Shown here: positions 22,902 through 44,521 of the stretch, piece after piece
Layout of the letters: each line of letters begins with the position of its first letter
Position numbering within the stretch: position 1 is the stretch's first letter
Assembly (NCBI GenBank): GCA_963665775.2
Contig: CAXXTF010000002.1
Span: 64,001 to 128,000 of the forward strand
Length of the DNA stretch: 64,000 nt
Reading direction: 5' to 3'
Origin: Dehalococcoidia bacterium
GTDB taxonomy: Bacteria > Chloroflexota > Dehalococcoidia > SM23-28-2 > RBG-16-64-32
The notes under the pieces: model-generated
Told to the model about the DNA's origin: nothing
The model's database searches: none
The model's input: only the letters and a program-made list of their open reading frames with translations
Translations under genes and position numbers: made by a program

Positions 22902-24203
22902 ATGACTGAGCCCAACCGCCAACGCCCTCGCTCCCGGCAGCTCTTCGCCCAGGCCCAGCAGCTCATGCCGGGCGGCGTCTCCAGCCCCGTTCGTGCCTTC
23001 CGGGCCGTGGGAGGCGATCCGCCCGTTATCGCCTACGCCAAAGGCCCCCGCATCTTCGATGTCGACGGTAACGGCTACATCGACTACGTATGCGGCTACG
23101 GTCCCCTCATCCTGGGTCACGCCCATCCGGAGGTGGCCGCCGCCATCGCGGAGGCCGCCGCCCGCGGCACGGCCTTTGGCGCCACGACGGAGCTGGAGGT
23201 GGATCTGGCCCGCCTCATCAGCGAGGCCATACCCTCCATCGAGATGGTGCGCTTCGTTAACTCCGGCACGGAGGCCACCATGTCCGCCCTGCGACTGGCC
23301 CGCGCTTTCACGGGCCGGAGCAAGGTGGTGAAGTTCGAGGGCTGCTACCACGGCCACGCCGACGGTCTCCTGGTCCAGGCCGGCTCCGGCGTCGCTACGC
23401 TGGGTCTGCCCGATAGCCCGGGCGTGCCTGCCAGCTACGCCGCGGAGACGTTGGTCGTCCCCTACAACGACCTGAAGGCGATCCGTCTCCTGTTCGAGGC
23501 GCACCAGGGCCAGATCGCCGCCGTCATAGTAGAGCCGGTAGCCGGTAACATGGGCGTCGTGCCGCCCAGCGCCGGTTTCCCGCAACTCCTACGCGACCTG
23601 ACCTTGCGGCACGGTGCCCTCCTCATCTTCGACGAGGTGATCACCGGCTTCCGCCTCCATTACGGAGCGGCCCAGGCCATCCTGGACGTGGAGCCAGACC
23701 TCACCTGCCTGGGCAAGACCATCGGCGGCGGCCTGCCTGTAGGCGCCTACGGCGGCCGGCGGGAGATCATGGAGCAGGTGGCGCCCCTGGGCCCGGTCTA
23801 CCAGGCAGGCACGCTCTCCGGAAACCCCCTGGCTATGACGGCCGGCATCACCACCCTGCGTCTGCTTCAAGATAAGGACGTTTACCGGCGTCTGGAGGAG
23901 AGCGCCGTCCGGCTGGAGGATGGGCTGCGTCGCGTCGCTGGGGAAGCAAAGGTCGCCGCCCACCTCAACCGGGTCGGCTCGCTGCTCACCCTCTTCTTCA
24001 GCGACGAACCCGTGACCGACTACGCCAGCGCCAAGCGGTCCGACACCAAGCGCTATGCCGCCTTCTTTCGCCAGATGCTGGAGCGCGGCGTCTTCCTGCC
24101 GCCCTCCCAGTTCGAGGCCCTGTTCGTCTCTCTCGCCCACGGCGCGGAGGAGATCGAGGCCACCGTCGCCGCTGCCAGTGACGGCCTGAACGCCATCCGC
24201 TGA
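22902..24203 (+). CDS. hemL: glutamate-1-semialdehyde 2,1-aminomutase
   Basis: [44 protein letters not shown]. Confidence 0.97.
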
Positions 24204-24299
24204 CAGGCGCGGGGAGGATATTGTCAGCCCCGAACACGGGGAGTATACTACTCTCCGGCCCCACCTAATATTGTATACGCGATTAAGTAGGTGAACGCT

Positions 24300-25430
24300 A
24301 TGAAGATATCCTGTCTCAAGGAAAACCTCGCCAAGGGACTCTCCATCGTCGGGCGGGCGGTGGCCGTCCGGAGCACGCTCCCCCAGGCCTCGCACGTCCT
24401 CCTGGCCAGCGATCAGGGGCGCCTCAAGCTGGTCGCCACCAACCTGGAGATCGCTACTACCTGCTGGATCGGCGCTCAGGTGGAAGAGGAGGGAGCGATT
24501 ACCGTCCCGGCCCGGCTCCTGACCGACCTTGTAGCGTCCCTCCCCGACGATCGCATAGATATGGATGTGGCAGGGCGCCCTCGTCAGCTCCACATCACCT
24601 GCGCCCGCAATGAGGCCACCATCGCTGGCATGGACGCCGAGGACTTCCCCCCGGTGCCTTCCGTGGAAGACGGCCCTTCCCTGAAGCTCGACCCGAAGGC
24701 GTTACAGCGGGCTATCGCCCAGGTGGAGTTCGCCGCCGCCGCCGCTGACACCCGCCCCGTCCTCACCGGCATCCACATCCTGGCGGAGGACGGCCAGCTC
24801 ACCCTGGCCGCCGCCGACGGCTTCCGACTCGCCGTCCACAAGCTGCCCCTGGAGCAGGATGCGCCGGAGCGGGTTGAGGTGATTATCCCGGCCCGGGCCC
24901 TGAGGGAACTGGAGCGCCTCATCGCCGACGAGGAGTCCCTGGAGGCAGCGTTCAACGCCACTCGCTCCCAGGTCATCTTCCGGCTGAAGACGGTGGAGAT
25001 AGTGGCCACTCTAGTCCAGGGCACCTTTCCCAACTACAGTCAGCTCATACCCCAGTCCTGGGCCTCGCGGGCGGTCATCGACATGCGCCAGTTCCTGCAA
25101 GAAACCCGCATCGCCGCTATCTTCGCCCGAGACGGTGCCGGCATCGTCCGGCTGCAGGTGGAACCCGGGCAAGAGGCGGCACCCGGCAAGATGATCATCT
25201 CCGCTCGCGCCGAGGAGATCGGCGAACACCACGGCGAGATCGACGTGGCGGTGGAGGGTGAGCCGTCCAAGGTCGCCTTTAACAGCAAGTACCTACAGGA
25301 CGTGCTCCAGGTACTGGACTGCAGCCAGGTAGCGCTGGAGACCTCCAACCCGTCCAGCCCCGGCGTCATCCACCCGATCGGCTCCGATGACTACGTGCAC
25401 GTGGTCATGCCGATGTTTGTTCAATGGTGA
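24300..25430 (+). CDS. dnaN: DNA polymerase III beta sliding clamp
   Basis: ATNLEIA, RPVLTG, AADGFRLA, GTFPNY, FNSKYLQD, VVMPM; not adjacent to dnaA. Confidence 0.96.
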   Translation: MKISCLKENLAKGLSIVGRAVAVRSTLPQASHVLLASDQGRLKLVATNLEIATTCWIGAQVEEEGAITVPARLLTDLVASLPDDRIDMDVAGRPRQLHITCARNEATIAGMDAEDFPPVPSVEDGPSLKLDPKALQRAIAQVEFAAAAADTRPVLTGIHILAEDGQLTLAAADGFRLAVHKLPLEQDAPERVEVIIPARALRELERLIADEESLEAAFNATRSQVIFRLKTVEIVATLVQGTFPNYSQLIPQSWASRAVIDMRQFLQETRIAAIFARDGAGIVRLQVEPGQEAAPGKMIISARAEEIGEHHGEIDVAVEGEPSKVAFNSKYLQDVLQVLDCSQVALETSNPSSPGVIHPIGSDDYVHVVMPMFVQW

Positions 25431-26958
25431 CTAAATCCTGAGGCTGAGTAGTCATCATCAGCGGAACAACACCCCGAATCCGTGCTTCGGTGTTCGACGC
25501 CGCAATCTGGGCGTCCGTAGCCCGCAGCAGTAGGTCGAGCTTGTCGACATCGGCTGATTCGAGCCAGGAACGTAGCCGCCTGCTGTACTCGGGAGCGCAG
25601 ACTCGCAGACCATCGAGGTCGATTCTTGACCTGGCTTGGGGCTCCAACCTTTGACGCTCTGCTTCAAGGGTTGTTCTCTGGACGCTTAGCTCGCGCCGCT
25701 GCTCCTCCAGAAGGTCGCCCGGCAAGCCGCCATCGGTGAAGAGCCGAACTAGTCGCCGCTGACGCGCTTCGACTTCCCGAAGTGCGTCGTTGACTCGCTC
25801 TAGTTGGCTTGTTTCAACATCATCGCCCGTTAGCCGGATGACTTCCGAGATGATGCGGTCCGGATCAGCAAGTAGGTCCGCAATGGCACGCATGACGGCG
25901 CCTTCGAGGGTTGCAGTCGCCACGTACTTCGAGTCGCATCGCTTGTCCCACTGACTCCCGTAGCTATGCCGGCATCGGTAGTAGGAGTAACGGCCCTTCA
26001 TCAGGACTTGCCCGACCATAGGCGCTCCGCAAGCGAGACAGCGAAGGCGGCCACGGAGCGGATAGGCTCGCGAAGGCTTCGACCGGCTATGGCGGTATGG
26101 GTCTTCCAGAATGGTCTTCGCCCGTAGGTAGAGCTCAGGACTGACGATTGCAGGTGTAGCGCCCGCAATCTCAATCCATTCGTTCTGCTCGCGCTCTGAA
26201 ACACGCACCTTCCACCGGCCAGAGCGGCCATCGCGATACTTCTCTGACTTCGTCCGACGGTAGATAGACCGGCCAGTGTAGGTCTCGTTGAGAAGCATGC
26301 GGCGAATGGTCAGCGGATACCACGGGCCGCCGGCAAACGCAGGAACACCTCTTGCGTTGAGGCTAGCGGCTATACCGTGGCAGCTTCCGCCTTCTGCGAA
26401 CTTCTCGAAGGCTTCTCGTACAATGTCGGCCTCTCTCGGCTCGACGCGCCGAGTGCCACTCGCCTGGTCATACCTGTAGCCATAGATGCCTCGACCTGTC
26501 GCCTGGGGGAGCTTCCCGCTGCGGGCTCGCTGCGCCTTACCGCGCTGAGTTCGCTCGACGATTTTCTCGCGCTCGACTTCGGCTACGAAGGCTCGTGCGG
26601 CGAGTATGAACCGGCCAACAGCAGTGTCCTCGAACTTCTCTGTCACGAAGTCGAGCTTCACGCCGGTCTGATTTGCCTCATCGAACAGAACGCCGATTTG
26701 GTTCTGGTTGCGGGAGAGCCGATCAATCGCGAACGCAAGGATAACGTCTGCATCGGCGTCTCGAAGGAGCTTCCGAACCTGCTCCATACCCGGACGATCG
26801 AGCGTGAAGCCGCTCGCTGCATCGCGTACGGTGCCAACAATTGCCCAGCCCTGAGCCTCTGCGTACTCAGCGCAGGCCCTCTCCTGGGTCTCTAAGGAAG
26901 TGCCATCACGCTCCTGAGCATCGGTCGAAACCCGACAGTAGATCACGCATCTAGTCAT
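25405..26958 (-). CDS. large serine recombinase (integrase)
   Basis: YCRVST catalytic motif, DRLSR, GIYGYRY, Zn-ribbon CLACG...YYRC, coiled coil. The last 8 codons and stop lie inside dnaN. Confidence 0.95.
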   Translation of the reverse strand: MTRCVIYCRVSTDAQERDGTSLETQERACAEYAEAQGWAIVGTVRDAASGFTLDRPGMEQVRKLLRDADADVILAFAIDRLSRNQNQIGVLFDEANQTGVKLDFVTEKFEDTAVGRFILAARAFVAEVEREKIVERTQRGKAQRARSGKLPQATGRGIYGYRYDQASGTRRVEPREADIVREAFEKFAEGGSCHGIAASLNARGVPAFAGGPWYPLTIRRMLLNETYTGRSIYRRTKSEKYRDGRSGRWKVRVSEREQNEWIEIAGATPAIVSPELYLRAKTILEDPYRHSRSKPSRAYPLRGRLRCLACGAPMVGQVLMKGRYSYYRCRHSYGSQWDKRCDSKYVATATLEGAVMRAIADLLADPDRIISEVIRLTGDDVETSQLERVNDALREVEARQRRLVRLFTDGGLPGDLLEEQRRELSVQRTTLEAERQRLEPQARSRIDLDGLRVCAPEYSRRLRSWLESADVDKLDLLLRATDAQIAASNTEARIRGVVPLMMTTQPQDLVTIEQTSA

Positions 26959-27149
26959 TTGCTCTTCTCCGGCTTCCGCCCTGGGGGCTGAATCTCGTCA
27001 TCGTTCGTGCCGTACGCCTTATCGATGGCCGCTCGGATGAGCTTGGCGATGGGCACGCGCTGCTCGAACGACAGGCGTCTAAGGGTCTCGTACTCGTCCT
27101 CGCTGATTATGAGCATCATTCTCTGCATAACACTATTATTATATGGCAA
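26955..27149 (-). CDS. ribbon-helix-helix (CopG-like) protein
   Basis: RMMLIISEDEYETLRRLSFEQRVPIAKLIRAAID; ATGA overlap with the integrase. Confidence 0.8.
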   Translation of the reverse strand: MPYNNSVMQRMMLIISEDEYETLRRLSFEQRVPIAKLIRAAIDKAYGTNDDEIQPPGRKPEKSK

Positions 27150-27162
27150 TTAGAAGGACCCG

Positions 27163-28158
27163 TCAAAGGGCCTGCCCTTCCATGGCACTATCTACACGGA
27201 TCTGGGACGCAATGCACTCATGGCTCCTGAGCAGGCGGTCCACTGTTGCGACACGCCGGCAAGCCAAGACCAACTTCACCGAGTGGTCATCATAGCCGTG
27301 CTTGCGCAGCCAGACCACAAACGCAGCCGTTAGCTGACTCAAGGTCAGCCCGGGCCACCCAGCACTCTCGCACATACACTTGATACGGTTCCGGATTGCC
27401 CCCTTGGAGAGATGCTCGCCTTCCTTGCGACCGGGAAGCACGTAATTATCGCGCTGCAAACCGGACGTCAGGGCCAAGCTGAGCAGGGGCCTTGCACCCA
27501 TTGGGACAATCAGGCAGGTGGTGCGGCGTCCTCTCCGATGCACAGTGACTTCACAGAAGGTCGAGGCGCTGTCATCCCGCCAGGTAACATCCGACCATCG
27601 CAGTTCGCAAATTTCATCCAACTCAAGGCCGCTGAAGCAGGCCAGCCCTGCGATGGTGCCGTCAAGCGGCGAGCGAGAAACTGCAAGTCGGAGTATGGCT
27701 TCGAGAGCGTCAGGGTCTGGCGTTGGACTGCGAGGACGAATGCGTTCTCTCGATCCCGGTAGCGACAGGCCGCTATCGTGCCAACCGCTACCCTTCCTCT
27801 TGGGCAACGAGGATTGAAAGGCGGTGATCCAACCTCGCCCCTCACCGTCACCCAGCTGGAGCATGGCGAGCCTTTGTAAGGCCCTGGATCGTGTGAGCAC
27901 CGTAGAGTGTCCGCTGGAGCGGCCTGCAAGTTCGATTAGCTCGGCGGCGCTGTCGGGTCGGTCGAACAAGTCTGCAAGCGCCATCCCGAGATGTGTCTTG
28001 GCGTCCTTTGCCAAGGAACGGAGCTGCGAGACCTCGGCCGCAATCGTCGAAGCCGCCTTGCCACTCTCCAGTCGCGCTTCTTTGAACCGGCCAATCAGCG
28101 CCTTCGTCTCAGGAGAAAGTGAGAAGCTTCCGAATAGGTCTAGCGCTCTCTGGGTCAT
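27163..28158 (-). CDS. tyrosine-recombinase-fold protein lacking catalytic residues
   Basis: SGLELDEICELRWSDV (box I Arg replaced by Glu); no HxxR or C-terminal H/Y is discernible. Confidence 0.7.
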   Translation of the reverse strand: MTQRALDLFGSFSLSPETKALIGRFKEARLESGKAASTIAAEVSQLRSLAKDAKTHLGMALADLFDRPDSAAELIELAGRSSGHSTVLTRSRALQRLAMLQLGDGEGRGWITAFQSSLPKRKGSGWHDSGLSLPGSRERIRPRSPTPDPDALEAILRLAVSRSPLDGTIAGLACFSGLELDEICELRWSDVTWRDDSASTFCEVTVHRRGRRTTCLIVPMGARPLLSLALTSGLQRDNYVLPGRKEGEHLSKGAIRNRIKCMCESAGWPGLTLSQLTAAFVVWLRKHGYDDHSVKLVLACRRVATVDRLLRSHECIASQIRVDSAMEGQAL

Positions 28159-29465
28159 GGCCCCGTGCCTACCGCGTCAAGTACTGGAGAATCGGTCTCC
28201 ACCGGGAGCGCTTGTCCGGGACGGGATGGTAGTCTTGCCACAGACTGCCTTAGGCGAGTGAGTGAAGGCTGGACGTAGTGGTCGTCCATCCGCCGTGTTG
28301 AGGTCCAGTTGCCGGCGGTGGCTACTGTCGCTCTCGGCACCACCGCAGTGCTGATGGTGGCAAAGGCCCGACGGAAGGCATGTGACGTATAAACGGGGAC
28401 GCCGACGCTGATACACGCCTGCTTCAATTCACTAGTCCAAGCCTGATAGGTCAGCGGCTGGCCGAGGTCGTTTCGCCAGAAGCGCCCGAGTACGCCGAAC
28501 CCGATACGGTCAGGTAACCCAGACGCTTTGGCCCAGGTGTTGAACTGCTCAACGTAGCGGGCCAGCGGCTCAGTGAGATCGTCAGGTGCGGCGAGTTCAT
28601 AGGGCTCGCGCTTGCTCTTGGCCCTGAGGAGACAACGGATGCGTCCATCCCTCAATCTGTGCGCGCTCGCGCCATCGAGCGTGAGCAGGCCGCCGATACG
28701 CAAGCCCCGGCGCGTCATCAGGCTGAAGATGATCTTGTTGCGGGAGCCGCGCCAGTCAGGCTTGCCGGCGAGTTCGTCCTGAATTGCCGCGATTTCTTCG
28801 AGGGAAGGCGCCGGGCCACCCCGTCCGCGTGTCGCCCCGACAGGCAGGCGATAACCCGTGCCCACGGGTTCGGCGACCGAGCGAAGGGCGCGTACCAGCG
28901 CATCTCCAGCATCTGCTATACCTTCGCGTCTGAGCTCTGGTTCCATAAGCTCGGTGAACGAGCGGAGGACGCTGCGGCGTTGAGCCACTAGCCAGGCCGA
29001 GACCTCACGGCTCCTATCAGCGGTGGTTGCTGTTGCGAGGAGACGACCAAGAAGCTGTTCGTCTCTCAGGAGTTCGAGGATGCCCACGCTGCGGCCTGCT
29101 AGGTTGCCTGCAAGGCCCAGCATGTTGCGGAGGACCCAGCGATACTGCCGTCTAGTCCTCCCCGTCCATCGGGCTGCAATTCGTTTGTCGTAGAGGGTCA
29201 CAAGGGCCTCTGCCTCCCGATGTGACTTTGGCGGCAGCGGTCGCCTTCGCCTGACAATCGCTGTGTCCTCGCCTAAGCCAGGCAGACCACGCTGTACAGG
29301 GCGACTGTCGATCTTCGGAGTCTGGGTTTCCTGCCGGACTGTCGATCTTTGCTTAGTAGTGGTAGTAGTTGATGCCGGAGTACCCAGGGCATTCGAGATT
29401 GGAGAGGCTGGGCGGTTCATGAGAACAGGCGATTGCTCTCGGGCAAGGAGTGCAAGGCTCGTCAT
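28155..29465 (-). CDS. tyrosine recombinase
   Basis: RGLRIGGL (R), RAKSK (K), SHAFRRAFAT (HxxR), GNW...DDHY (W, Y). Confidence 0.85.
   Translation of the reverse strand: MTSLALLAREQSPVLMNRPASPISNALGTPASTTTTTKQRSTVRQETQTPKIDSRPVQRGLPGLGEDTAIVRRRRPLPPKSHREAEALVTLYDKRIAARWTGRTRRQYRWVLRNMLGLAGNLAGRSVGILELLRDEQLLGRLLATATTADRSREVSAWLVAQRRSVLRSFTELMEPELRREGIADAGDALVRALRSVAEPVGTGYRLPVGATRGRGGPAPSLEEIAAIQDELAGKPDWRGSRNKIIFSLMTRRGLRIGGLLTLDGASAHRLRDGRIRCLLRAKSKREPYELAAPDDLTEPLARYVEQFNTWAKASGLPDRIGFGVLGRFWRNDLGQPLTYQAWTSELKQACISVGVPVYTSHAFRRAFATISTAVVPRATVATAGNWTSTRRMDDHYVQPSLTRLRQSVARLPSRPGQALPVETDSPVLDAVGTGP
29303..29373. repeat. about 70-bp element containing two GACTGTCGATCTT boxes; second copy at 50496-50562
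   Basis: Direct alignment of the two copies shows high identity, with 1-bp and 3-bp indels. Confidence 0.85.
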
Positions 29466-29656
29466 TGTGACGACTCCCTGTCACCGTTTCGCTCAGGAAG
29501 ACCGACCTCGGTGAGTATCCGGCGCCACAGCTCTGACCACGCCGAGCTGGTGGTGGCAGTCGTTGTCCACTCAGCGTGGATCTCCAGCTCGGCGGCGGAG
29601 TGGCGCGAGGGCTGCTTCTGCGATGGCGTGAGCTCCGGTTTCGGTTTGCGAGTCAT
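29462..29656 (-). CDS. small hypothetical protein (WxxLWRRIL motif)
   Basis: ATG start; ATGA overlap with the tyrosine recombinase. Confidence 0.55.
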   Translation of the reverse strand: MTRKPKPELTPSQKQPSRHSAAELEIHAEWTTTATTSSAWSELWRRILTEVGLPERNGDRESSQ

Positions 29657-29744
29657 CCTGCCTTGAGGCTAGAACTCGCTTTACGGCACTCGTCCGGCGC
29701 CGAACGTTCTTCAAACGCATTTCAAACGGTTTTCGTCCGCACAC

Positions 29745-31457
29745 TCAGGGCAGGTCCAGGGTGTAGACGCCTCGGGCTCCGGCTTCGACGATTAGCCTTT
29801 TCCAGAGGGGCGACTTGCCGAACATGTCACTCATACTGCGCGAAAGGCTCTCTGTCCGGTCTCTGATCACGCCCCAACTCATGGGTGGGTCGCGTCTCTC
29901 CCATGCCTCATTCAGCAATCGCATGACCGGCCGTTGCACTGGGGTCAATGCATAAGACTTGCCTCGGAAGACGATCGACTCGTAATTTTCTCCGTGAACG
30001 AGCCCCTTTCGTCTGCCGCGATCGATCTCGAGTTCCTTCTCCGCACCGGCGCAGAGGCTAACCAAGCAAGTGGCAGGCAACAGCCCCCTGGCCAGCTCAT
30101 CGGCGTGGCCTGCAATTTGGGAAGCCATCACGCTGATTACCCCTTTTGCGTGACGCTGATGCATGCGGACAAGCTCCAACCCGTCTTCTGCCACCGTCTT
30201 ACTGGATGGATCGAGACATTCGTCGAGCTGTGGATACTCATTGATCATCTGGTCTTCGGTCAGGTCGTACATTCGCAGCGCATGGCGAAAGTACGAGGTC
30301 GCCATAGTCCGTGGTTCGCCATCCAGCAATGGTTGGGTGAAGATGTCGACTTCGTAAGCTTCCGCCGGGTCGTATTCTTCGATGCCAGCCTCCATCGTCC
30401 CAAACCTGCGGTCTATGCACTGCGAGCATGTCCCGCAGTGGGGCTGCATCCTTGCCCGGCCTCTTGGGTGAGCGCATGAATGCGTAAGCGAGACGAGGTC
30501 AAGCGCAGCGAGGGGCTTCAGCAAGTCGAATGTCTCGGGTCTCGTCTGGTTCCACAGCGGATTCCAGACGCTAACGTCCGCTTCTGCCACCAGACCGGCG
30601 AGTCGCCGAAAGAGGAGGAGAAACTTGGGATGCGTTGACCGGCTCGCGCGCGCCCCGATGGCCTGGTCTGTGAAAGGCAGGTTCACGCTGACGATCCCAT
30701 TGTCGGCCAGGCGAATATCATCAATGCCCAACGCAATCCCGACCGCTGTTCCCAGGCTCGCATAGAGCATTGACCGGGTCCGTTGAGTATTCTCCTTTGC
30801 ATCGGCGCCCTTGAGGCTGACGACAGCGTCAGCAGTGCGAAAACCCTGCCGGGCGAAGCGCCGTCTGACTTCCGTCAGCAAATCGCGGCGGTGGCCAATA
30901 GCAGCTTTGGATGCGCGATGACTTACTAGGAACGGATTTCTGTCCTGCTGGTGAGCTGACAGCGCAGCGCACAAACTGTCAGCGCCGCCAGAGAACAGTA
31001 CGACGCATCCAGGCTGTCCGTGAAGCCCCGCGTCTGTCTCCACGAGTCTCATCTGAACAGTGCCGGATTCCACTAGCTTCTCGAAGCGGAAGTCCCAGCC
31101 GTCTTCCGTCAAGAAGTTGAGCGTCTCCCGCAGAGCTAGGCTAACGTCGCTGGCATTCCAGAAGTCTGGGTCGCTGACCGGGATAGCCATCAGCATCTGT
31201 CGGCGCCAGTCTTTTAGGTACACGTCGGCTTCGCCGCCCCTTGACGCCGACTCGTCAGCGAGGAAGCAGTAACTGGCGATGCGAACGAGATCGCGCATCC
31301 TCGGTGAGAGGTTGCCGAGGACGGGGCCGGGTAGCTCAAGCCGGAAGTCCGTTACTGTTTTCCCTTCGTTGTGGGCATCAAGGGAATGGCGATGTGGGAC
31401 CCTCGACCACTCCGACGGAATGCTCAGACCCTCACAGGCAAAGACGTGCCCCTTCAC
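29745..31457 (-). CDS. QueC-like (QatC/Cap9-like) PP-loop ATPase with Zn site and C-terminal winged-helix-like domain
   Basis: VLFSGGADS, ENTQRTRS, DNGIVSVNLP, SRSTHPKF, SC...HCGTCSQCIDRR, plus an extra C-terminal domain of about 90 aa. Confidence 0.85.
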   Translation of the reverse strand: MKGHVFACEGLSIPSEWSRVPHRHSLDAHNEGKTVTDFRLELPGPVLGNLSPRMRDLVRIASYCFLADESASRGGEADVYLKDWRRQMLMAIPVSDPDFWNASDVSLALRETLNFLTEDGWDFRFEKLVESGTVQMRLVETDAGLHGQPGCVVLFSGGADSLCAALSAHQQDRNPFLVSHRASKAAIGHRRDLLTEVRRRFARQGFRTADAVVSLKGADAKENTQRTRSMLYASLGTAVGIALGIDDIRLADNGIVSVNLPFTDQAIGARASRSTHPKFLLLFRRLAGLVAEADVSVWNPLWNQTRPETFDLLKPLAALDLVSLTHSCAHPRGRARMQPHCGTCSQCIDRRFGTMEAGIEEYDPAEAYEVDIFTQPLLDGEPRTMATSYFRHALRMYDLTEDQMINEYPQLDECLDPSSKTVAEDGLELVRMHQRHAKGVISVMASQIAGHADELARGLLPATCLVSLCAGAEKELEIDRGRRKGLVHGENYESIVFRGKSYALTPVQRPVMRLLNEAWERRDPPMSWGVIRDRTESLSRSMSDMFGKSPLWKRLIVEAGARGVYTLDLP

Positions 31458-31460
31458 GCC

Positions 31461-32234
31461 TCAGCCTCTTTTCAACTCGCTGCGCATCTTGCGAAGGGCG
31501 TACGCTACGAACGCCCGCGTGTCCCCCTCGGTAATTGCGCCTTGTGACTCCCACTGGTGCTTCGAGTACCAGCCCCCCGCGAAGTCGCGAAGAATGAAGG
31601 CTGTTTCTCGTGCGTGCCGGTCTATGGCTTCAATGGCTTCGCGGCTATCTCCGACGGTGCGAAGGCCGGGAGAAGCGCCGACGAGGTTCGGAATCTCCTT
31701 ATCGACGTAAGAGCAAAGCGTTCGTGCTAGAAAGTCGCCGAAGAACCGCTGCGCCAACTGGGCGAAGTGTTCACGTGTGCTGTATGTGCGAAAGGCCGCC
31801 CGGAGGTCGCTCAGGGCGGTTCCAAACAGGCTGGGTCCCTGCTGCCCCACCGTCTCCGTCAACGCTCGCCGAAGAGCCAGTGAGGCCATCTCGGCCGTTG
31901 CGCCGGACTTCGGGTCTTGCATCGCCTGCGTTCGCACACGGTCCGTTACAGCCGCGATGAAGCCCAGCGTGGGCGTGTCGGCTTCAAGAGTGAGGCCCAG
32001 CGCGTCCAATTCGGTGAGGAAGCCGTCGCTACGGGCAGCCCAGGTGACACGGGTAAGTAGCCAGAAGCAGTAGTTGAGGGCGGGGTCGTCTCGAAGCGAG
32101 ATCAGGTGTCGTTCGGCAGCCTCAGTGGTGGCCCTTGCAATAGCGGCGCCGTCTGCAGGCGTCTCACCAAGCAGTGCGACGACCGCGTTCCACTTCAACC
32201 GATGAGGGAGGCGTCCTAAGCGAATATGACCCAT
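31461..32234 (-). CDS. helical protein with N-terminal MGHxRLG, putative QatB-like partner of the QueC-like enzyme
   Basis: Starts MGHIRLGRLP, is all-helical, and ends 3 bp before the QueC-like gene. Confidence 0.65.
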   Translation of the reverse strand: MGHIRLGRLPHRLKWNAVVALLGETPADGAAIARATTEAAERHLISLRDDPALNYCFWLLTRVTWAARSDGFLTELDALGLTLEADTPTLGFIAAVTDRVRTQAMQDPKSGATAEMASLALRRALTETVGQQGPSLFGTALSDLRAAFRTYSTREHFAQLAQRFFGDFLARTLCSYVDKEIPNLVGASPGLRTVGDSREAIEAIDRHARETAFILRDFAGGWYSKHQWESQGAITEGDTRAFVAYALRKMRSELKRG

Positions 32235-32280
32235 GAGTCGTCCTTCCGGCGGGTAGGCCGGGGTTTTAGTCGATCGCCTC

Positions 32281-32495
32281 GACCTGCCCCATGAACGCTA
32301 CCACACGCTATGTTAGTGCAGCCATTGCCATAGTCTCGATGTATGGCGGGGTGGAGCCTGGCCATGGCAGGATCGCTTGCGGTGCTAGCGGCCGGCAACC
32401 AAGAACGCTATACGGGCGCACCGCACTGTAGTTTCATCGCCACGGCTCGCATAGCACCTGTGCTTCTGACCTGCACCCATAAACGCTACCAGACG
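32281..32495 (-). mobile_element. degenerate right-end fragments of the IS3 element (two stacked ends)
   Basis: 32281-32466 aligns with 56850-57036. A second end motif, tgacctgcacccataaacgctacca, starts at 32467. Confidence 0.8.
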
Positions 32496-32637
32496 CCACG
32501 CTTGCACCCAGTTTGGTGACGGCGCTCGATGGTTGACCGCCCACCACAACTGGTACTACAGTACTACAGCCAGCATGCCTAGAGGCACCTTCCCTTCATT
32601 ACGGCGCGGGATCCAACCGCAGAAAGGGACCACTCAA

Positions 32638-35600
32638 ATGGCGCGAGTGGCCGGAGCCGAGCCCATCTATCGAGTCGCTGATCTCTTTCGGCAACGTTGC
32701 CTCATCGAAAGGCGATCACTCTTATGGGGTGAATCAGCTGTGTGGACGCCGGACAATCTGTCCGCGCTGTGGGACGCTTTCGACAAGAGTCGTGACGAGA
32801 GCGACAGGTCCTTCTTCGACAAGCTTCGAGACCAAATCAGTGAGCAACCACCCGACGTCCATCGTGTGGCCGCGGATATCTTGGCACTATATCACCTGTT
32901 CCCGTCAAATATCGCCGCCGAAACGAAGCTCAACAACGTCAAGACAGTCATCAGCTGGAAACTCCAGGGAGATCTGCCAGATTTCCTGCTATTGGAGAAG
33001 GCCTATTCGAAGGGCATAGGAAGCGGAGGCACGGGGTACCTCACAGGAAGGCCATGGCACTTCGCCTTCCTAATCAAGTTCTCACAAGGAATCCTCTCGG
33101 GAGAAGCCGACCCACTCGACCCGACATCCTGCCAGAAACTCGCCGACTCCGTTGAGAGCCAGATTCGGAGTAGTCGGGCTGCGCGACACGTGATCCTGCA
33201 CCTGCTACACCCGGACAGGTTCGAGCGAATCGCTAGCGAGAGGCACAAGCGCCAATTGATTGAAGCCTTCCAGGACCGAGCGGCCGCGGCAGAAGATCTT
33301 GACGATGCGCTGCTCAGCATAAGGCGTGCTTTCGAGGATGAGTATGATCGAGCGGACTTCGATTTCTACGACAAGGACGTTATCGCCCACTGGAACGCCG
33401 ATTTCTATGGAACCGACGGGGAGTCAGATCCTACCAAGATTGCAGAGCTGCTGGAGAACAAATCGTTAGCGGACAGGGACGTAATTAGCGAAAAGGGCTG
33501 GCAGAAAGCAGTACGGCCCATTACCCGACCCTTCCTACAACGAATAGCAGACAAACTCGGAACCGGGGTGAAATTCTTCTCTGGGAGAGATGCAAAGCTA
33601 AAACGGGAATCCTATGACACGCTCGCCGTCGAATTGGATGGCGTCTCCGCGGTCGTCTATGTTGGATGCGCAGATAACGCTGACGGGAACCTTGAGCAAC
33701 AACTCAGTTGGGGACTGCACTCCTGGGGGGCAGCCGACTCCGCCGAGCAGCGCATACGCGCAGCGGAGAGCCTGAGCATACCAGGATTTACCCTGCGAGC
33801 TATTGACGGGATCAAGGCCAGTGGATTCGGCGGAACAACCGTTGTCCTATTCAGGTCGAGGTCGGCCGAAGAACTTCGAGGTTTGCCGGAAGATGAGCTT
33901 GTAGGCGAAATCGCTGACGACCTCAAAACCATCATTGCCAAAGCTTCTGCTCCGGTCGAGGAGCCCCGCGTCTGGATAGAGAAAACAATCGTACATGGGC
34001 GGCCGCATCGTCAATCCGGAGAGCACGCTCTCGGCAAGGTGCTCTGGTCCCCGCAGCACAGCAGAGGGGGCGGCGACATATATCACTTCATGCGCGACGT
34101 GAAGGAGGGCGACATCGTCCTGCACCTGACGGACAACGAGGCGTTTGCCGGCATGTCAATTGTCGGCAGCCCGGCTGAAGATTTCGCGGGCGTGGCAAAC
34201 TCGGAATGGGGCGAGGGCGATTCATACTTGGTGCGACTCCGGGACTTCGAGAGACTAGATCCACCACTGTCGCGAGAGGTCGTCTTTGAATCCCCTTATC
34301 GAGAGCAGCTCGTCGCGTTACTAGAAGAGGGAGAGAAGAATCTCTTCTATAATCGAGGGCCGAGCCTCAATCAGGGTGCACACCTGACACCCGCGCCCAC
34401 GGCACTGGTCGCTATTCTGAACGATGCGTACCGCCAGGTCGCCGGGCGGCCCCTCGTCGAGTTGACGCCCCCGAAACTCAACGCTCTGCTTGTCGGTACA
34501 GCGGCCTATCAGGAGAAGCACGCTCTGCTCGTTGAGGAACAACTCCAGTCCCAAGATCGAGCGACTTCATGGTGGCACATCCCAATCACAGGTGATCGAG
34601 AGCGAGTGCTGATCGAATCGGGTTACGTGTACTTGTACAGGGGCCAGCCCGGCCAGGAGTTGACGCACCGCTATCATGTGGTCGATCACAGCACCACGAG
34701 CGGCAACACAGGAATCGCCTGCCCCTGGCCCGAATTCGCGCAACCAGAGTTGCTGGACAGGACAAGCGCCGGCCCCGACAGCGACGAAGTATTCAAGACG
34801 TGGCTCTTGATCGACCGCGTCGAAGAGCTCGATCCCCCTATTGATTTGAGCTAGGTCGAGAAGGCGGACGGTGAACCCGCAGATCCGAGCGCCCTTGTTG
34901 GAGGATTTGGACTGTGGCGCACTAAGAAAAGCAGTCGCGCCCACACGTGGATCTTTCAAGCGAATCCGGCGATTTACGACATTCGCGGCTCCATCCAAGT
35001 GCTTCAAGAGGATACTTGGCTCGTGCGGCAACATGGCAACGAGATTCGGCCAGGAGATAGAGTGTACTTGTGGGAGGCCGGACCGAACGGCGGCATTATT
35101 GCGACTGCCGACGTTCTCAGCCAGCCCAGCACGATGTTGTTGCCTGACGAGTCTACGCCTTTCGTTAGAGAGCCGTCCAAGCTGGAAGGTCCACAAAATC
35201 GCGTTACGGTTCGTATTAACAATCTTGTAGACCCGATCCTAACCCGGGAAGAAGTGCTTAGGCAGCCAGAGCTCGCGAACCTCAGCATATTGCGACAACC
35301 GCAAGGGACAAATTTCAGCGTAGATCGAAGACAGTCTGAGGTGCTCGAACGTCTCCTTGCCGAGCGGGATGAGGCGCTGATCAATCCTGAGTACAGTCTG
35401 AACCAGTTGGCTCTTGAGACCGGCTTCGACGAAGCGACGATGGAGCGCTGGGTGCGCGCAATCGAAAGAAAAGGCCAAGCGATAATCTACGGACCGCTAG
35501 GCACTGGCAAAACCTATCTGGCGCAGCAGCTCAGCAGACACATTGTTGGTGGTGCTGACGGACTACAAGATATCGTGCAGTTCCACCCAGCGTATGTCTA

Positions 35601-36213
35601 TGAAGATTTCATACAGGGCATCCGACCTCAGGCCAGCGAAGGTGGCGGACTTGACTATCCGGTGATTTCCGGTCGCTTCGTCGAATTCTGTGCAAAGGCT
35701 CGGATGCGACAGGGACACTGCGTTCTAATCATCGACGAGATCAATAGGGCGAATCTGGCAAGGGTATTTGGCGAGCTGATGTACCTGCTTGAGTACCGCG
35801 GCCGCGAGATCCCGATGGCTGGTGGCGGCACCTTGAAAATCCCCGAGAACGTCCGAGTCATAGGCACCATGAACACCGCCGACCGCTCGATCGCTCTGGT
35901 GGATCATGCGCTTCGCCGAAGATTCGCGTTTTTGGCCCTCTATCCTGATTATGAGGTCCTGCGGAAGTACCACGCATCCACCGGCTACCCCACAGATCCG
36001 TTGGTGGGTGTCCTGCAGGCACTGAACCGACAGATAGGCGACCGGCATTACGAAGTCGGAGTCACCTTCTTCCTGTTGAAGAATCTGGCAGACCATATTG
36101 AGGACATTTGGCGAATGGAGATCGAGCCCTACCTGGAGGAGTATTTCTTTGACCAGCCCGAGAAGGTAGCTGAGTTTCGCTGGGATAGGGTTGGGGAGAG
36201 ACTTTCTCCGTGA
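32638..36213 (+). pseudogene. mcrB: large multi-domain McrB (several EVE/PUA-like reader domains + AAA+ GTPase) with in-frame TAG at 34852-34854
   Basis: The two ORFs share frame 1 and read through cleanly (...PPIDLS*VEKADG...TWIFQANP). Motifs IIDEINRAN, MNTADRS, LRRRF. Walker A reads GPLGTGKT. Confidence 0.88.
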
Positions 36214-37424
36214 ATGCCCCTCCCACCCAAATTGTGGAGCTCACAGAGTACGCCACCAAGAGCTTCCCACGCGAGGACATCCCTGACAGCGTAGCCGAGG
36301 CGTTATGGCGGAACCATAGCGCTAAGGTCGCGGTAGAGTTCCCATCACCGAAGACCGCCTATAAGTGGGAACTCACCGCCCAGGGCTGGGTAGGCTACAT
36401 TCCCTTGTCTCCAGAACTGCGTTTGTGGCTTCGCCCAAAGGTGGAGCTGTCCAACCTGTTTCACATGCTTGAATATGCGTACCACCTCAAGAGCTTCATC
36501 TTCCTTGAGGGCCTTTTCGAGTGCCAATCACTCCAGGAATTCTACGAGCGCCTGGCGAATGTCCTGGCCAAACGAATCCTGAACCGCGGCCGCCAGGGAT
36601 TCTATCGAACCTACGTACCCAGAACAGAGCGCCTGCCCTACCTGCGCGGCCGACTCGAGATTCCATCACTGGTACGAGCACCTTGGGACGCAAACATGCA
36701 GTGCCACTATCATGAGCACACCGCTGATGTCGAGGAGAACCAGATCCTCGCCTGGACGCTCTTCACGATAGCCCGGAGCGGCATGTGCTCGGAGCGCGCC
36801 ATGCCGGCAATAAGCCGGGCGCACCGCGCCCTGCAGGGATTCGTAACGCTCGTCCCGCAGGGCCCAGAGGCATGTACAGGGCGGCTCTATCATCGGCTAA
36901 ACGATGACTACAGGCCGTTGCACGCCTTATGTCGGTTCTTCCTAGAGCATAGCGGGCCACATCACGAGACGGGCGATCGAACTATGGTGCCATTCTTAGT
37001 TGATATGGCACGCCTTTTCGAATTGTTTGTCGCAGAATGGCTGGCAGCACACTTGCCGGAGGGGCTGGAGTTGAAGCCTCAAGAAAGTGTAGCCATCGGT
37101 GATGGAGACACTCCTGGCTTTGTAATCGACCTAGTGCTATACGACACGGCCAGTGGCACCGCACGCTGCGTGATGGACACGAAGTATAAGACCCCGACGG
37201 CACCTTCGACTGAAGACATCGCTCAGATAGTTGCCTACGCTGAGGCTAGGGGCTGCCAAGATGTGATCCTGATCTACCCAACTGAACTGCCGAGGCCGCT
37301 TGATGCCACTGTCGGGAGTATTCGAATCCGAAGTCTGGCCTATTCTGTGGACACGGACATCGAGCAGTCAGGGCTCGACCTGATGCATAACCTACTCAAT
37401 GCCGGGCAGTCCGGCGGCTTCTAG
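36210..37424 (+). CDS. mcrC: McrC-family restriction nuclease
   Basis: DMARLFELFV, IDLVL...MDTKYK, DIAQIVAYA, LIYP; GTGA overlap with mcrB. Confidence 0.9.
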   Translation: MNAPPTQIVELTEYATKSFPREDIPDSVAEALWRNHSAKVAVEFPSPKTAYKWELTAQGWVGYIPLSPELRLWLRPKVELSNLFHMLEYAYHLKSFIFLEGLFECQSLQEFYERLANVLAKRILNRGRQGFYRTYVPRTERLPYLRGRLEIPSLVRAPWDANMQCHYHEHTADVEENQILAWTLFTIARSGMCSERAMPAISRAHRALQGFVTLVPQGPEACTGRLYHRLNDDYRPLHALCRFFLEHSGPHHETGDRTMVPFLVDMARLFELFVAEWLAAHLPEGLELKPQESVAIGDGDTPGFVIDLVLYDTASGTARCVMDTKYKTPTAPSTEDIAQIVAYAEARGCQDVILIYPTELPRPLDATVGSIRIRSLAYSVDTDIEQSGLDLMHNLLNAGQSGGF

Positions 37425-37563
37425 CCTCCCTATTAATTGTGTGGTGCCACAATTTCACCCGTATCTGGCAGGGTTAACGGCATGAGAGAAGAAGGCTACG
37501 AAATGGAGTCCGACTGCAGGCACGTTGCATCCAGCGATGATCCGTTCACGGCCCGCATGCGCT

Positions 37564-37638
37564 ACGGAGCTGACCCCACCTCAAATCTCTCGGGTTTTTC
37601 TACCCCCTCATCTGTCCCATTATCGCTGACGGTCTACA
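37564..37638 (-). mobile_element. isolated 75-bp copy of the left end of the IS at 42755-44280
   Basis: Identical to 44206-44280, in direct orientation. Confidence 0.9.
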
Positions 37639-38194
37639 CCCAGGTACATCAGGCTCCGGAATCGTCAACACTGATGCGTTGGGCTTCCAATGGGTTGAAT
37701 TGTCTTCGTCAGAGGATGAAGGGAAGTCATTTGCCGTGAGATTTCCGGAAGATACGACTTTGTCATTTCCAACAAGCGATGCGAGAGCAAGAATCAGAGG
37801 ATTCCGATTCAAAGTCAGGTACAACATAGCCACAGAGAAGATTGCAATATATGGTGAAGATTACGTTTCCTTGGTCATGCATGCGATTTTCGAAGACAGG
37901 AAATTCGCCATTTCTCCAGATGGAGCAATCCATGTATTCGGTTCTCCTTGACAGATACCTTGGTTTCGAACTATCGACTTTCGTACTGGAAGGGACTCGA
38001 TGACCAACATAGCCCGAGAGAGTACCATTGAGGTTCCGGGGGTACCCGTAGGATTGCAATCCCTCGCAAAGGAGGACATCGGGATACTGTTAAACGCAAT
38101 ATCGACAATTGCTGACGCACAGGGAATACAATTCCTGCTCAATAAGATTCGTGTGACCGACTGTTTTGAAGACGGAATTTCCTAGTTTAAGGTC

Positions 38195-38223
38195 TTGACC
38201 TTCCGCCCTCCCTGTGCGATAAT
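38195..38223 (+). promoter_or_regulatory. transposase promoter TTGACC-N17-GATAAT overlapping the left TIR
   Basis: Exact spacing visible in the sequence. Confidence 0.6.
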
Positions 38224-38265
38224 CATAGTGTGGACAGTGATTACGTACTAAGAAGGACGGAAGGT

Positions 38266-39153
38266 ATGAACATTATAACAGTTTTCGAGCGGTTTCCAAC
38301 CCAAGTAGATTGCATCAAACACCTGGAAAAGGCTCGTTGGGGCGATCAAGCAACCTGCCCCTACTGCACCTCCACCAATACCAAGCCACTCCAGCATCGT
38401 CACCGCTGCTACACTTGTAAGACCTCTTTCAGCGTTACAGTCGGCACCATCTTCCACCATACCCATATGCCCCTTCAGAAGTGGTTCCTTGCAGTTACGC
38501 TCATTCTGAATGCTAAGAAGGGGTTATCAGCCCTGCAACTTTCCCGTGATCTCCAAGTGAACAAGAACACTGCTTGGAGAATTGCTATGCAAATCCGTAA
38601 GGCGATGACCCAATCGGAACAACGTGGACTGCTCACTGGCATCGTGGAGATGGACGAAACGTACATCGGCGGCAAGCCTCGCAAGGGTACTAAAGGCGAC
38701 GGGCCGGATGGCCAGCATCTCCGGGGGCGCGGCACCAGTAAGACCCCCGTGGTGGGGGCCGTGGAACGCGGCGGCAAGGTCACGGCAAAGGCGACCGACA
38801 AGACCAAACTCCGGGGATACCACCTTCGAGCCTTTGTCCGTGAGCGTGTCAACACGTCTAGTGCGGCTCTTGTCACGGATGAGTACAAAGGCTATCTGGG
38901 TATGGACAAGGTACTCCCACACGCCGTTATCAAGCATCAAGACTGGTACGTCGATGGCGATATCCACACGAACACCATCGAGGGGTTTTGGGCATTGCTC
39001 AAGCGGGGCATGTTCGGCCAGTACCATAGCGTGAGTCGAAGGCGTCTACAACGCTACGTAGATGAGTTCTGCTATCGCTACAATCTCCGACACATGGAAG
39101 CTCAGGCAGCATTCGACCAGACTATTAACCGAGGATTGGGGGGGACGGCATGA
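38266..39153 (+). CDS. IS1595-family DDE transposase
   Basis: CPYC Zn finger, VEMDETYIGG, VTDEY, HTNTIEGFW, YVDEFCYRYN. Confidence 0.95.
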   Translation: MNIITVFERFPTQVDCIKHLEKARWGDQATCPYCTSTNTKPLQHRHRCYTCKTSFSVTVGTIFHHTHMPLQKWFLAVTLILNAKKGLSALQLSRDLQVNKNTAWRIAMQIRKAMTQSEQRGLLTGIVEMDETYIGGKPRKGTKGDGPDGQHLRGRGTSKTPVVGAVERGGKVTAKATDKTKLRGYHLRAFVRERVNTSSAALVTDEYKGYLGMDKVLPHAVIKHQDWYVDGDIHTNTIEGFWALLKRGMFGQYHSVSRRRLQRYVDEFCYRYNLRHMEAQAAFDQTINRGLGGTA

Positions 39154-40028: not shown

Positions 40029-40030
40029 CT

Positions 40031-42694: not shown

Positions 42695-42754
42695 AGCCAC
42701 GCGCCCTCAGCCGAGGACGGACGGCATATCGTCCATATCGTCTGGGCGGCTGAC

Positions 42755-44280: not shown

Positions 44281-44299
44281 GTGAAGGAGAAACGATAGC

Positions 44300-44311
44300 G
44301 AACAGCTGTTC
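44300..44311. promoter_or_regulatory. GAAC-N4-GTTC LexA (SOS) box candidate
   Basis: cGAACagctGTTCt in intergenic DNA; matches the Gram-positive/Chloroflexota LexA motif. Confidence 0.4.
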
Positions 44312-44521
44312 TTTTTGTCAATGGCCTGAGGACAGACCAATATGCCGGGCGAATTCGGCGAATTCCATGCCGCTCAGCGTGCGGCCATACTTCCAATCCT
44401 CCATGTATTGACTGAGAGCGGGTTTCAAATTACTTGTATGCGTGCCAGGGGGGGAGTAAAATCATTTTATAGGGTCCAAGACGCAATATTTTCATTTCCC
44501 GGTACTCGGAGGATAAACAAA

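Follow-up and report, generated by a model that had tools for sequence, protein, structure and literature searches.

A divergent two-gene QatBC-like module with a predicted winged-helix domain beside recombinase genes in a Dehalococcoidia bacterium

The closest described relatives of the gene pair discussed here, which lies in a stretch of 64,000 nucleotides (nt) from a Dehalococcoidia bacterium (GCA_963665775.2, contig CAXXTF010000002.1, positions 64,001-128,000, forward strand; the whole stretch is called the window), are the proteins QatB and QatC of the QatABCD system. Canonical QatB has an N-terminal MGTS with an essential Gly2 and a disordered tail of 30-90 residues (PMC13279940), and a QatB N-terminal peptide with an NDG modification has been detected from Escherichia coli (PMC13639016). 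QatB and QatC alone protect E. coli against lambda-vir, and both the G2D mutation of QatB and mutations of the PP-loop abolish this defence (PMC13279940). The genes qatA and qatD were found beside only ~34% of the QatC-cluster genes (‘Cluster 2’; Libby et al., PMC13329287). An analogous case is Cap9 of type IV CBASS, a QueC-family enzyme whose presumed target is the N-terminal Gly of a partner protein encoded next to it (deazaguanylation; 10.1101/2025.04.06.647259; PMC13279940). The reaction of QatC and the way in which modified QatB stops phage were left open in the QatABCD work (PMC13279940).

The pair in the window consists of a short gene, here called B, whose product begins with Met-Gly and is the presumed substrate or partner, and a longer gene, C, which encodes a QueC-like enzyme and starts 3 nt after the stop codon of B on the minus strand. 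Both are intact and lie exactly where an earlier examination of this DNA by its letters and open reading frames (ORFs), the sequence-only reading, had placed them (Table 1). The interpretation favoured here, with moderate confidence, is that B and C together are a divergent, self-contained conflict module of QatBC type, directed against phages or other mobile DNA, and that they are the recombinase-proximal cargo of an integrative element at the 3' end of dnaN. Several independent lines support the central inference of the sequence-only reading, a minimal QatBC-like pair of substrate and enzyme with a different N-terminal Gly motif and a link to DNA; of the two functions that this reading had allowed for, defence and regulation of the recombinase operon, each is compatible with the data.

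Compared with the QatBC core (9y01/9y02, 9vlk and 9zee), the pair has an enzyme with the QatC-type extensions at both termini (the C-terminal one helical), the PP-loop, a four-Cys Zn site and an active site in which hydroxyl residues replace the Tyr and Asp of QueC, the same helical fold and N-terminal Met-Gly in the partner, and the same gene order, partner and then enzyme. It differs in standing without qatA and qatD, in the length of the enzyme (543-914 amino acids (aa) among the unsplit C ORFs of the family, with a swappable C-terminal domain, against 423-457 aa in four canonical QatC proteins) and in the partner, which has the motif MGHxRLGRLP and ~11 residues before its first helix instead of MGTS and a tail of 30-90 residues. 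The relatives of C that share this length are called the long-form family below.

C is a member of the QatC branch of the QueC family, with an ATP-pyrophosphatase fold and an active site remodelled in the manner of QatC. The QatC model of PADLOC matches it at 3.7e-51, and a phmmer search against the sequences of the PDB returns the solved QatC chains 9vlk_A (9.7e-30) and 9zee_B (1.1e-25) over residues 55-356. The four motifs named in the sequence-only reading are all present, as SGGADS (156-161), TQRTRS (224-229), STHP (274-277) and CGTCSQC (341-347), and in an alignment of 42 family members the residues D56, D68, R73, W84, R86, W100, S156, G157, G158, D160, S161, H180, R226, R228, N253, G254, C328, C341, G342, C344, C347 and R350 are invariant.

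The motifs listed for canonical QatC, D(x)4R(x)nWxR, RxRxxx[FY], ExG, HP, P(x)4TK and a Zn site of the form Cys...CGxCxxC..RR (Libby et al., PMC13329287), recur in C and in the family alignment, with spacers of different length. C reads D68-x4-R73-x10-W84-x-R86, with a spacer of 10 against the canonical 7; R226-x-R228-xxx-Y and H276-P277 match the QatC motifs; D252-N-G254 and P300-x4-T305-R stand where the consensus of the long-form family is ENG and TK; and the Zn site, C328...C341-G-x-C344-xx-C347..R350-R351, has a Cys spacer of 12 against the canonical 19. In QatC of P. aeruginosa, two invariant threonines (T278/T280) replace the Tyr and Asp of QueC (PMC13279940); the aligned positions in C are S272 and S274, and the family consensus is S and T, which keeps the hydroxyl in C on residues that are not Thr.

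B resembles QatB in structure only. B has no match in the Pfam, PADLOC (QatB included), NCBIfam and PHROG libraries, and its profile finds no QatB chain among the PDB sequences at E ≤ 10, the only return being a chance match to Mx2 (E 0.36). Its AlphaFold2 model (pLDDT 86.4) is all helical, as the sequence-only reading had expected, with the first helix from residue 13 and pLDDT below 50 only at residues 1-4. The top Foldseek match of this model is the solved QatB 9y02_A (E 0.068), with which VIA-align superposes 204 of 211 residues (Z 13.7, root-mean-square deviation (rmsd) 3.9; next entry Z 5.5), pairing B residues 7-257 with QatB residues 64-286. By these models, B has the globular fold of QatB. 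What it lacks is the disordered N-terminal tail of ~63 residues; ~11 residues precede its first helix.

The N-terminus of B is conserved in the partner family. A word-indexed search found 460 relatives, nearly all of 257-262 aa, and G2, G7, R8, L9 and W15 are invariant in 32 aligned ones. A HMMER scan of 1.84 billion representatives (clustered at 50% identity) with the B profile, the family model that the sequence-only reading had proposed, gave 1443 matches at E ≤ 1e-3, 963 of them at ≤ 1e-10 and 379 at ≤ 1e-30. Among the best 150 of the 1443, 131 are at least 240 aa long; 121 of these start with (M/V/L)G and 117 with MGH, so Gly2 is conserved, contrary to one of the refuting outcomes that the sequence-only reading had named, and the motif around it is different from the canonical one, as had been supposed. 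In four of the remaining ten the motif is internal (an apparent miscall of the start), five are apparently cut at the N-terminus and one starts with MSR. The four canonical QatB proteins that were fetched all start with MGTS or VGTS.

A structure prediction of the complex with ESMFold2 and custom alignments (three runs, three controls) brings the two proteins together in the manner of the solved QatBC. The ipSAE was 0.91 in the three runs and 0.00 in the best of the three controls, a mark that 58 of 80 solved complexes attained in a benchmark, against 2 of 110 mismatched pairs; contacts agreed between runs by at least 78% and the partner pLDDT was at least 87. In the model, B residues 1-11 lie inside the interface, and on the side of C the interface covers residues 73-87, 224, 252-274, 329 and 345-349, at or beside the conserved active-site residues. 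The loop 261-268 of C faces B residues 174-179, and its helices 379-427 and 462-472 face B residues 87-130 and 182-201; the winged helix is outside. This arrangement parallels the published QatBC interface, which is made of an enzyme loop and the C-terminal extension (PMC13279940), and B and C are accordingly predicted to form a QatBC-like 1:1 complex.

The pair is widespread as a pair. It was followed in 79 loci of genomes that each represent a species; they span many phyla, among them Chloroflexota, Acidobacteriota, Planctomycetota, Myxococcota, Pseudomonadota, Gemmatimonadota and Nitrospirota, and include a metagenome-assembled genome (MAG) of the Parcubacteria group. In 73 of the 76 loci with a phmmer match to B, C lies directly downstream, far more often than chance would give, and most commonly with an overlap of 4 nt. 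One ORF encodes C in 67 loci; in 6 of the 73 (L006, L007, L046, L063, L065 and L071) it is split into two or three, which may be due to frameshifts, decay or assembly errors. In L007 the frame of C runs into a resolvase-type N-terminal domain. One relative of B, with 23% identity, is on a plasmid of Leptospira noguchii (NZ_CP091938.1, 62720-65364; L099), where genes of 260 and 621 aa overlap by 4 nt between IS982 and other hypothetical genes; in the RefSeq record both are annotated ‘hypothetical protein’.

Tabulation of the neighbours gave no recurrent third gene except recombinases. When the flanking ORFs were clustered all against all, few families recurred besides B, C and antisense shadows: large serine recombinases (LSRs; 30 loci), tyrosine recombinases (24), DUF2924 (14), two families of N6_N4/ParB-type methylases (10 and 8), small HTH_17 proteins (7) and PrimPol-D5 primases (6). 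Of the 320 ORFs that lie within 3 kb, 115 (those of loci L001-L030) were tallied by Pfam family and the rest were judged through clustering and representatives; the tally counted Phage_integrase 11 times, Recombinase 7 times and Resolvase 6 times, and KAP_NTPase and TatD were not among its 25 commonest families. No cluster of KAP-NTPases (qatA) or TatD proteins (qatD) recurs in the 73 loci. The sequence-only reading had seen no QatA ATPase, TatD, CD-NTase or TGT gene near the pair, and a check over the whole assembly of the window (2.35 Mb, two contigs, 91% complete) bears this out: there is no KAP_NTPase over the cut-off (the sole weak match, of 19.6 bits, is ~1.2 Mb away), no SMODS CD-NTase and no TGT, and the only TatD sits on the other contig. 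In 40 related genomes, drawn from the same family or order, the B profile had no match, which fits horizontal acquisition.

The position of the long-form enzymes relative to canonical QatC was evaluated with the NCBIfam QatC model over 401 alphaproteobacterial genomes, where three score classes were found. The canonical class (four genomes, 306-513 bits, 423-457 aa) is preceded by a partner of MGTS type and followed by an ORF resembling TatD; the long-form class (two genomes, 207-212 bits, 619-675 aa) has an MGHVRLGRLP partner; and in the third class (five genomes, 110-138 bits) the enzyme has 455-463 aa. A quick maximum likelihood search on the first 470 residues (51 rows) placed 42 long-form enzymes in one clade (SH-aLRT 95), with the four canonical (100) and the five third-type enzymes (100) outside; the program warned that the long branches of these last two groups meet. 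The third set (L092-L097; genomes G208, G254, G203, G176 and G360) also has a small partner gene before the enzyme, and residues 9-15 of that partner, LPMRRHW, resemble LPHRLKW of B. It differs in that the partner, of 185-205 aa, starts with MSDGPHRSLPMRRHWK or MTDGPHRSLPMRR (MSDGPHRS or MTDGPHRS) and thus has no Gly2, that a protein of ~395-416 aa follows the enzyme, and that it forms a separate clade.

The feature that sets the long-form enzymes apart is the module at their C-terminus. The sequence-only reading had noted ~90 extra residues resembling a winged helix, and residues 482-570 of C are modelled as just that. The model (residues 461-570, 10-row alignment, mean pLDDT 80.7) reaches a pLDDT of ~88-93 over fragment residues 31-110 and shows a beta-beta-helix x3-beta hairpin fold (DSSP of the fragment: E26-28, E34-37, E40-43, H48-60, H68-75, H82-86, E96-98, E104-107). 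Its best Foldseek matches are regulators of the OmpR/PhoB family (VanR 7lz9, E 0.027), and in VIA-align the match to CovR 3rjp aligns 85 residues (Z 9.1, rmsd 2.6). Among the 50 entries listed by VIA-align, 47 are DNA-binding domains of OmpR/PhoB type (including ToxR), each covering the whole domain, with Z 7-9.1, rmsd 2.6-3.3 and 79-85 residues aligned. Residues 471-570 match no Pfam family at E ≤ 1. The module therefore shares the fold of the effector domains of CovR, PhoB and OmpR and differs from them in having no sequence-family match and in being fused to a QatC-like enzyme instead of a receiver domain; judged by the model, it would bind DNA.

Among the relatives, the tails diverge beyond a motif, GxLP..CLL at about residue 470, that is kept family-wide. 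The window-type tail is found, among the 42 aligned, in the window, L001, L002, L005, L015, L018 and L021, and additionally in L006, L011 and L060. Another 11 of the 42 tails are of a DpnII/MboI nuclease type (Pfam REase_DpnII-MboI; 9.2e-09 and 35.5 bits against a cut-off of 27 in L026, 26 bits in L004), and all 11 keep a D...ExK pattern of the PD-(D/E)xK type. The tail of L033 has a helix-turn-helix of HTH_17/MerR type (7.7e-05). A Pfam search of ten tails gave nothing usable for the window type, a ‘GYRLNP’ type and a long coiled-coil type, and a word-index search with C residues 470-570 found only four close relatives and gives no view of the wider spread of the domain. In the tree, a mostly Chloroflexota subclade of 13 rows mixes nuclease, winged-helix, coiled-coil and one further type of tail; it follows that modules have been swapped while the enzyme core was conserved. 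The link to DNA that the sequence-only reading had drawn from the window alone thus extends to the relatives, through restriction-endonuclease folds or helix-turn-helix domains.

From the work on QatBC and Cap9, a course of events can be proposed for the pair. Met1 would be removed and the short N-terminal peptide of B, GHIRLGRLP, would enter the active site of C, which would use ATP to activate a carboxylate (7-carboxy-7-deazaguanine in the studied systems) and couple it to the alpha-amine of Gly2. The domain architecture adds a further step, in which the C-terminal module would tie the complex to DNA, by binding in the window version and by cutting in the nuclease-type relatives; the fused module would then take over the DNA-directed roles that QatA, which binds DNA, and QatD, a nuclease, have in QatABCD. 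The resemblance to Cap9 is limited to an enzyme thought to modify the N-terminal Gly of a protein encoded alongside: Cap9 is a minimal enzyme of ~185 aa that keeps the substrate-binding motifs of QueC (PMC13329287), against the 570 aa of C, and its partner is a CD-NTase, next to a TGT-like Cap10. In the main texts of the literature searched, no two-gene QatBC of the long form, with a DNA-binding or nuclease domain fused to it, was found described, nor a paper linking QatC to a serine recombinase. PMC13376578 and PMC13639016 do not mention stand-alone, two-gene or fused forms, and the words integrase, recombinase and endonuclease are absent from PMC13329287; the ‘Cluster 2’ of Libby et al. (PMC13329287) may include these long-form proteins.

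Several observations weigh against the view that the pair is a QatBC-type defence module. C scores 187 bits (5e-55) with the NCBIfam QatC model (NF041925) and does not reach its equivalog cut-off of 280 bits. The comparison by hhalign of the B family with the four canonical QatB proteins gave a non-significant probability of 9% (with a thin QatB profile); the sequence link is thus undetectable, and homology rests on structure and gene context. Since B has neither the QatB tail nor MGTS, its N-terminus must reach the active site differently, and the predicted complex may score well through its likeness to QatBC structures that are already solved. The window version of C has no recognisable killing domain. 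Among 50,697 phage records no homologue was found, and among 72,556 plasmid records only the one in Leptospira.

The supply of the presumed substrate is another point of this kind. In the genome of the window, C is the sole QueC-family match and a QueE-like gene is absent, and TGT is missing while it is present in 14 of 14 control genomes; the best match of the QueE model is a SPASM radical-SAM protein (30 bits), and a PTPS gene is present with neighbours unrelated to queuosine synthesis. The organism appears to be without queuosine synthesis and insertion, and 7-carboxy-7-deazaguanine may thus not be made. Among 51 long-form hosts, most of them MAGs of unknown completeness, 22 have a full-length QueC (above 160 bits), 25 have a QueE-like match (E ≤ 1e-8, with a model that is not fully sensitive and missed 4 of 23 QueC-positive genomes) and 23 have neither. 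These 23 include records whose titles give a single chromosome or a complete genome (L004, L005, L006 and L040), and three of them carry a weak QueC paralogue of 58-90 bits. The missing supply was considered as a mark of the two-gene variant and rejected: in the four alphaproteobacterial hosts of canonical Qat, QueE-like matches are absent (0/4) and QueC is missing in three. The canonical hosts show the same gap, which makes it a general puzzle of QatC and not one of this variant, and it agrees with the proposal of Gao et al. that QatC may use another substrate (PMC13279940); on the other side stands the NDG-modified QatB peptide from E. coli (PMC13639016).

The main alternative, unlikely but not to be neglected, is that the pair serves the integrative element itself, as an accessory or regulatory module. 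The winged helix would bind element DNA, for instance in the gap between C and the recombinases, and the modification would control the tyrosine and serine recombinases, hence excision and integration at dnaN, with no anti-phage role. In its favour, and against the defence interpretation, an LSR gene follows the pair on the same strand, at most 3.5 kb downstream, in all ten winged-helix loci, with a gap of 143-324 nt after C in seven, and none of 14 nuclease-type loci has an LSR within 4 kb; the linkage suits a role tied to the recombinases just as well as defence. In the tree, the winged-helix loci are closely related, so this association reflects few independent events. The order B-C-Y1-Y2-RHH-LSR, all on one strand in the window (Y1 and Y2 are tyrosine recombinases, RHH a small ribbon-helix-helix protein), is the order of L012 as well, and in L018, a Dehalococcoides MAG, the order is B-C-Y1-Y2-small ORF-LSR, ending convergently against dnaN (17390-17541), with an LSR much closer to that of the window (1e-173) than B is (44% identity). 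In L006, L011, L015 and L021 the pair is framed, on a single strand, by a tyrosine recombinase gene that stops 66-130 nt ahead of B and an LSR gene that begins 143-324 nt past C.

More generally, by hidden Markov models built from the recombinase clusters, 38 of the 73 loci have a site-specific recombinase no more than 4 kb away. The first kb holds 25 such ORFs per 127 flanks, and at 4-10 kb the figure is 11 per 468 flank-kb. In the other 35 loci no recombinase lies within 4 kb, though many flanks are short. Patchy spread and recombinase proximity fit defence cargo too: defence genes commonly adjoin integrases, and the nuclease-domain swaps and the defence role of QatBC point to conflict.

The boundaries of the element were examined by aligning contigs of four runs, which come from four studies, with positions 24001-44000. 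Contigs of these runs carry the recombinases, C and B, and in all four runs contigs break at 25402-25427, the junction of dnaN and the recombinase. The overlap of LSR and dnaN in the window and in L018, together with these breaks, suggests a family of elements that targets the 3' end of dnaN. Contigs of X6 (record 21) and X8 (record 30), from two other studies, which keep B, C and the recombinases as the regulatory alternative would have it, match the window through B to 32325 and then continue with 66 and 68 letters unlike it, and the contigs of X1 and X2 with the 773-aa gene begin at 32283; positions 32283-32325 mark a junction of variable cargo just upstream of B. X6 and X8 have no contig cover over most of 32672-37340, which is not evidence of absence. 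No contig of the four runs spans the island, and its far boundary was not found.

Repeats near the pair were considered as possible operators. Direct hexamer repeats with ~11-nt spacing follow the stop of C in the window (29701-29728), L001 (3388-3450), L060 (11343-11390) and, most strongly, L006 (12548-12640), which counts for the regulatory alternative; the hexamer differs from locus to locus. The six CCCAC(A) copies of L006 were reached by 0 of 200 shuffles and the three copies of the others have p ~0.07-0.10; the window chain of three was reached by ~7% of 200 mononucleotide shuffles and is not significant alone. The statistic is weak, with chains of at least three in 4 of the 11 loci of winged-helix type and in 6 of the 36 remaining loci (1 of 12 nuclease-type, 5 of 24 other). 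As operators of the winged helix these hexamers are suggestive only, with L006 alone individually significant and the shuffles mononucleotide.

A second repeat, of 21 nt (CCCATRAACGCTACCASACGC), occurs four times in the window (32288-32308, 32476-32496, 47622-47642 on the minus strand and 56858-56878) where none is expected by chance, two of them in the 298-nt gap between B and the 773-aa gene. It was rejected as an operator upstream of B, as the other two copies lie at the 3' ends of the ORFs 46759-47622 (IS3-type transposase by Pfam) and 56878-57741 (presumed to be another IS3-type transposase); the copies are probably relics of insertion-sequence ends.

A narrower form of regulation, rather improbable as it stands, joins these elements. 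The winged-helix form would be a sensor-regulator within a lineage of serine-recombinase elements and would not kill; capping of Gly2 would switch the DNA binding of C at repeats upstream of the recombinases, so that the island would be excised or integrated at dnaN in answer to infection or stress. The cap would then be a carboxylate other than the 7-carboxy-7-deazaguanine of the host, or one supplied by the invader.

It is improbable, more so than either form of regulation, that B and C are a stabilisation module of addiction or abortive type, similar to toxin-antitoxin systems, which keeps the island in place through damage to cells that are perturbed or have lost it. The compactness of the operon, two overlapping genes carried by mobile elements, a patchy distribution and a DNA-binding domain that could autoregulate would suit such a module; however, neither protein matches a known toxin or antitoxin family, a QatB-fold partner with a conserved Gly2 points to an enzyme and its substrate, and the proposal overlaps with abortive-infection defence, from which sequence cannot separate it.

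There is very little probability that C is a small-molecule, QueC-type 7-deazaguanine enzyme fused to a regulator domain, with B an unrelated neighbour. C does keep the PP-loop ATP-binding motif and the Zn-binding cysteines of QueC, and Pfam QueC matches residues 279-355 (5.6e-07), but only with model positions 135-207, its C-terminal third; the TIGR00364 model of QueC (7-cyano-7-deazaguanine synthase) gives 24.7 bits against a cut-off of 150.3, the active-site motifs are those of QatC, and C has additional N- and C-terminal domains and a dedicated protein partner to which it is coupled in nearly all loci. The lack of TGT and of a QueE-like gene in the genome argues in the same direction, as does the failure of canonical QatC to complement an E. 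coli queC deletion (PMC13329287). Least probable of all is a decayed QatABCD remnant that has lost qatA and qatD, which the broken mobile genes of the surrounding island might suggest, because the two-gene form is the rule across 73 loci of many phyla, has no recurrent KAP-NTPase or TatD cluster beside it, forms its own clade apart from canonical QatC and is intact in the window.

The features of the locus are collected in Table 1. The 773-aa ORF has no match in Pfam, PADLOC, NCBIfam or PHROG and no homologue among the 79 pair loci, and it may form one unit with the McrB-like and McrC-like genes. These restriction genes had been described as broken in the sequence-only reading, which was not confirmed: both are whole, and the broken genes of the region are those of recombinases and transposases. 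Beyond the island, positions 38230-54190 are a mosaic of mobile-gene remains.

Table 1. Position of the pair, of the domains and motifs of its two proteins, and of the surrounding genes in the window.
Feature	Coordinates	Strand	Remarks
Gene B	31461-32234	-	ATG start, 257 aa, N-terminus MGHIRLGRLPHRLKW; presumed substrate or partner
B residues 1-15, N-terminal motif MGHIRLGRLPHRLKW	32190-32234	-	presumed acceptor Gly2 and docking peptide
GGAAGGA, Shine-Dalgarno-like run	32241-32247	-	6 nt before the ATG of B; read from sequence
Gene C	29745-31457	-	GTG start, 570 aa; QatC-clade QueC-like PP-loop enzyme with added C-terminal domain
C residues 1-145, QatC-type N-terminal extension	31023-31457	-	contains the invariant D56, D68, R73, W84, R86 and W100
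C residues 146-360, QueC-like Rossmann core	30378-31022	-	R226/R228, N253-G254, S272-R273-S274-T275-H276-P277, Zn site C328/C341/C344/C347
PP-loop SGGADS, C residues 156-161	30975-30992	-	all but residue 159 invariant in 42 sequences
C residues 361-481, helical C-terminal extension	30015-30377	-	predicted to hold B; kept family-wide up to GxLP..CLL
C residues 482-570, OmpR/PhoB-type winged-helix domain	29748-30014	-	by structure model and VIA-align
Three CGTT(T/C)G hexamers, 11-nt spacing	29701-29728	-	begin 16 nt past the stop of C; possible operator, weak lead
Tyrosine recombinase Y1, 436 aa	28155-29465	-	Pfam Phage_integrase 1.6e-07; next gene after C
Tyrosine recombinase Y2, 331 aa	27163-28158	-	Pfam Phage_integrase 1.7e-06
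Small ribbon-helix-helix protein, 64 aa	26955-27149	-	Pfam RHH_3 4.1e-04, 20.7 bits, just below the 21.6-bit cut-off
Large serine recombinase (LSR), 517 aa	25405-26958	-	Pfam Resolvase 4.9e-33, Recombinase 2.7e-22, Zn_ribbon_recom 3.8e-10
dnaN	24291-25430		convergent with LSR; 3' ends overlap by 26 nt
773-aa ORF	starts at 32533		upstream of B and divergent from it; with McrB/McrC-like genes, 32533-37424
McrB-like, EVE + AAA_5, 404 aa	34999-36213		ORF intact, full-length Pfam match
McrC-like, 404 aa	36210-37424		ORF intact, full-length Pfam match
IS1595-type transposase	38230-39153		
P63C-domain protein	39150-40028		
N6_N4 DNA methylase	40031-40924		
IS3-type integrase-core ORFs	42798-43409 and 46759-47622		
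Serine-recombinase fragment	45493-46359		zinc ribbon only
Serine recombinase split in two ORFs	52611-53681 and 53678-54190		

If the sensor-regulator proposal were true, the conjugation of a nucleobase-type group to a protein N-terminus would be a control device of mobile elements. The family also offers natural experiments on the two questions that the QatABCD work left open, as an ordered acceptor peptide of ~11 residues in place of a disordered tail of ~63 should make the N-terminus easier to trap in the active site. The question of the substrate becomes directly testable in hosts without an evident queuosine pathway, namely the organism of the window, 23 of the 51 long-form hosts and three of the four canonical-Qat hosts. 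The family is large, with its 1443 representatives, and catalogues that require all four qat genes may miss the pair. Finally, the fused DNA-binding and restriction-endonuclease-fold domains point to DNA as the site of action and suggest what QatA and QatD may contribute in the four-gene system.

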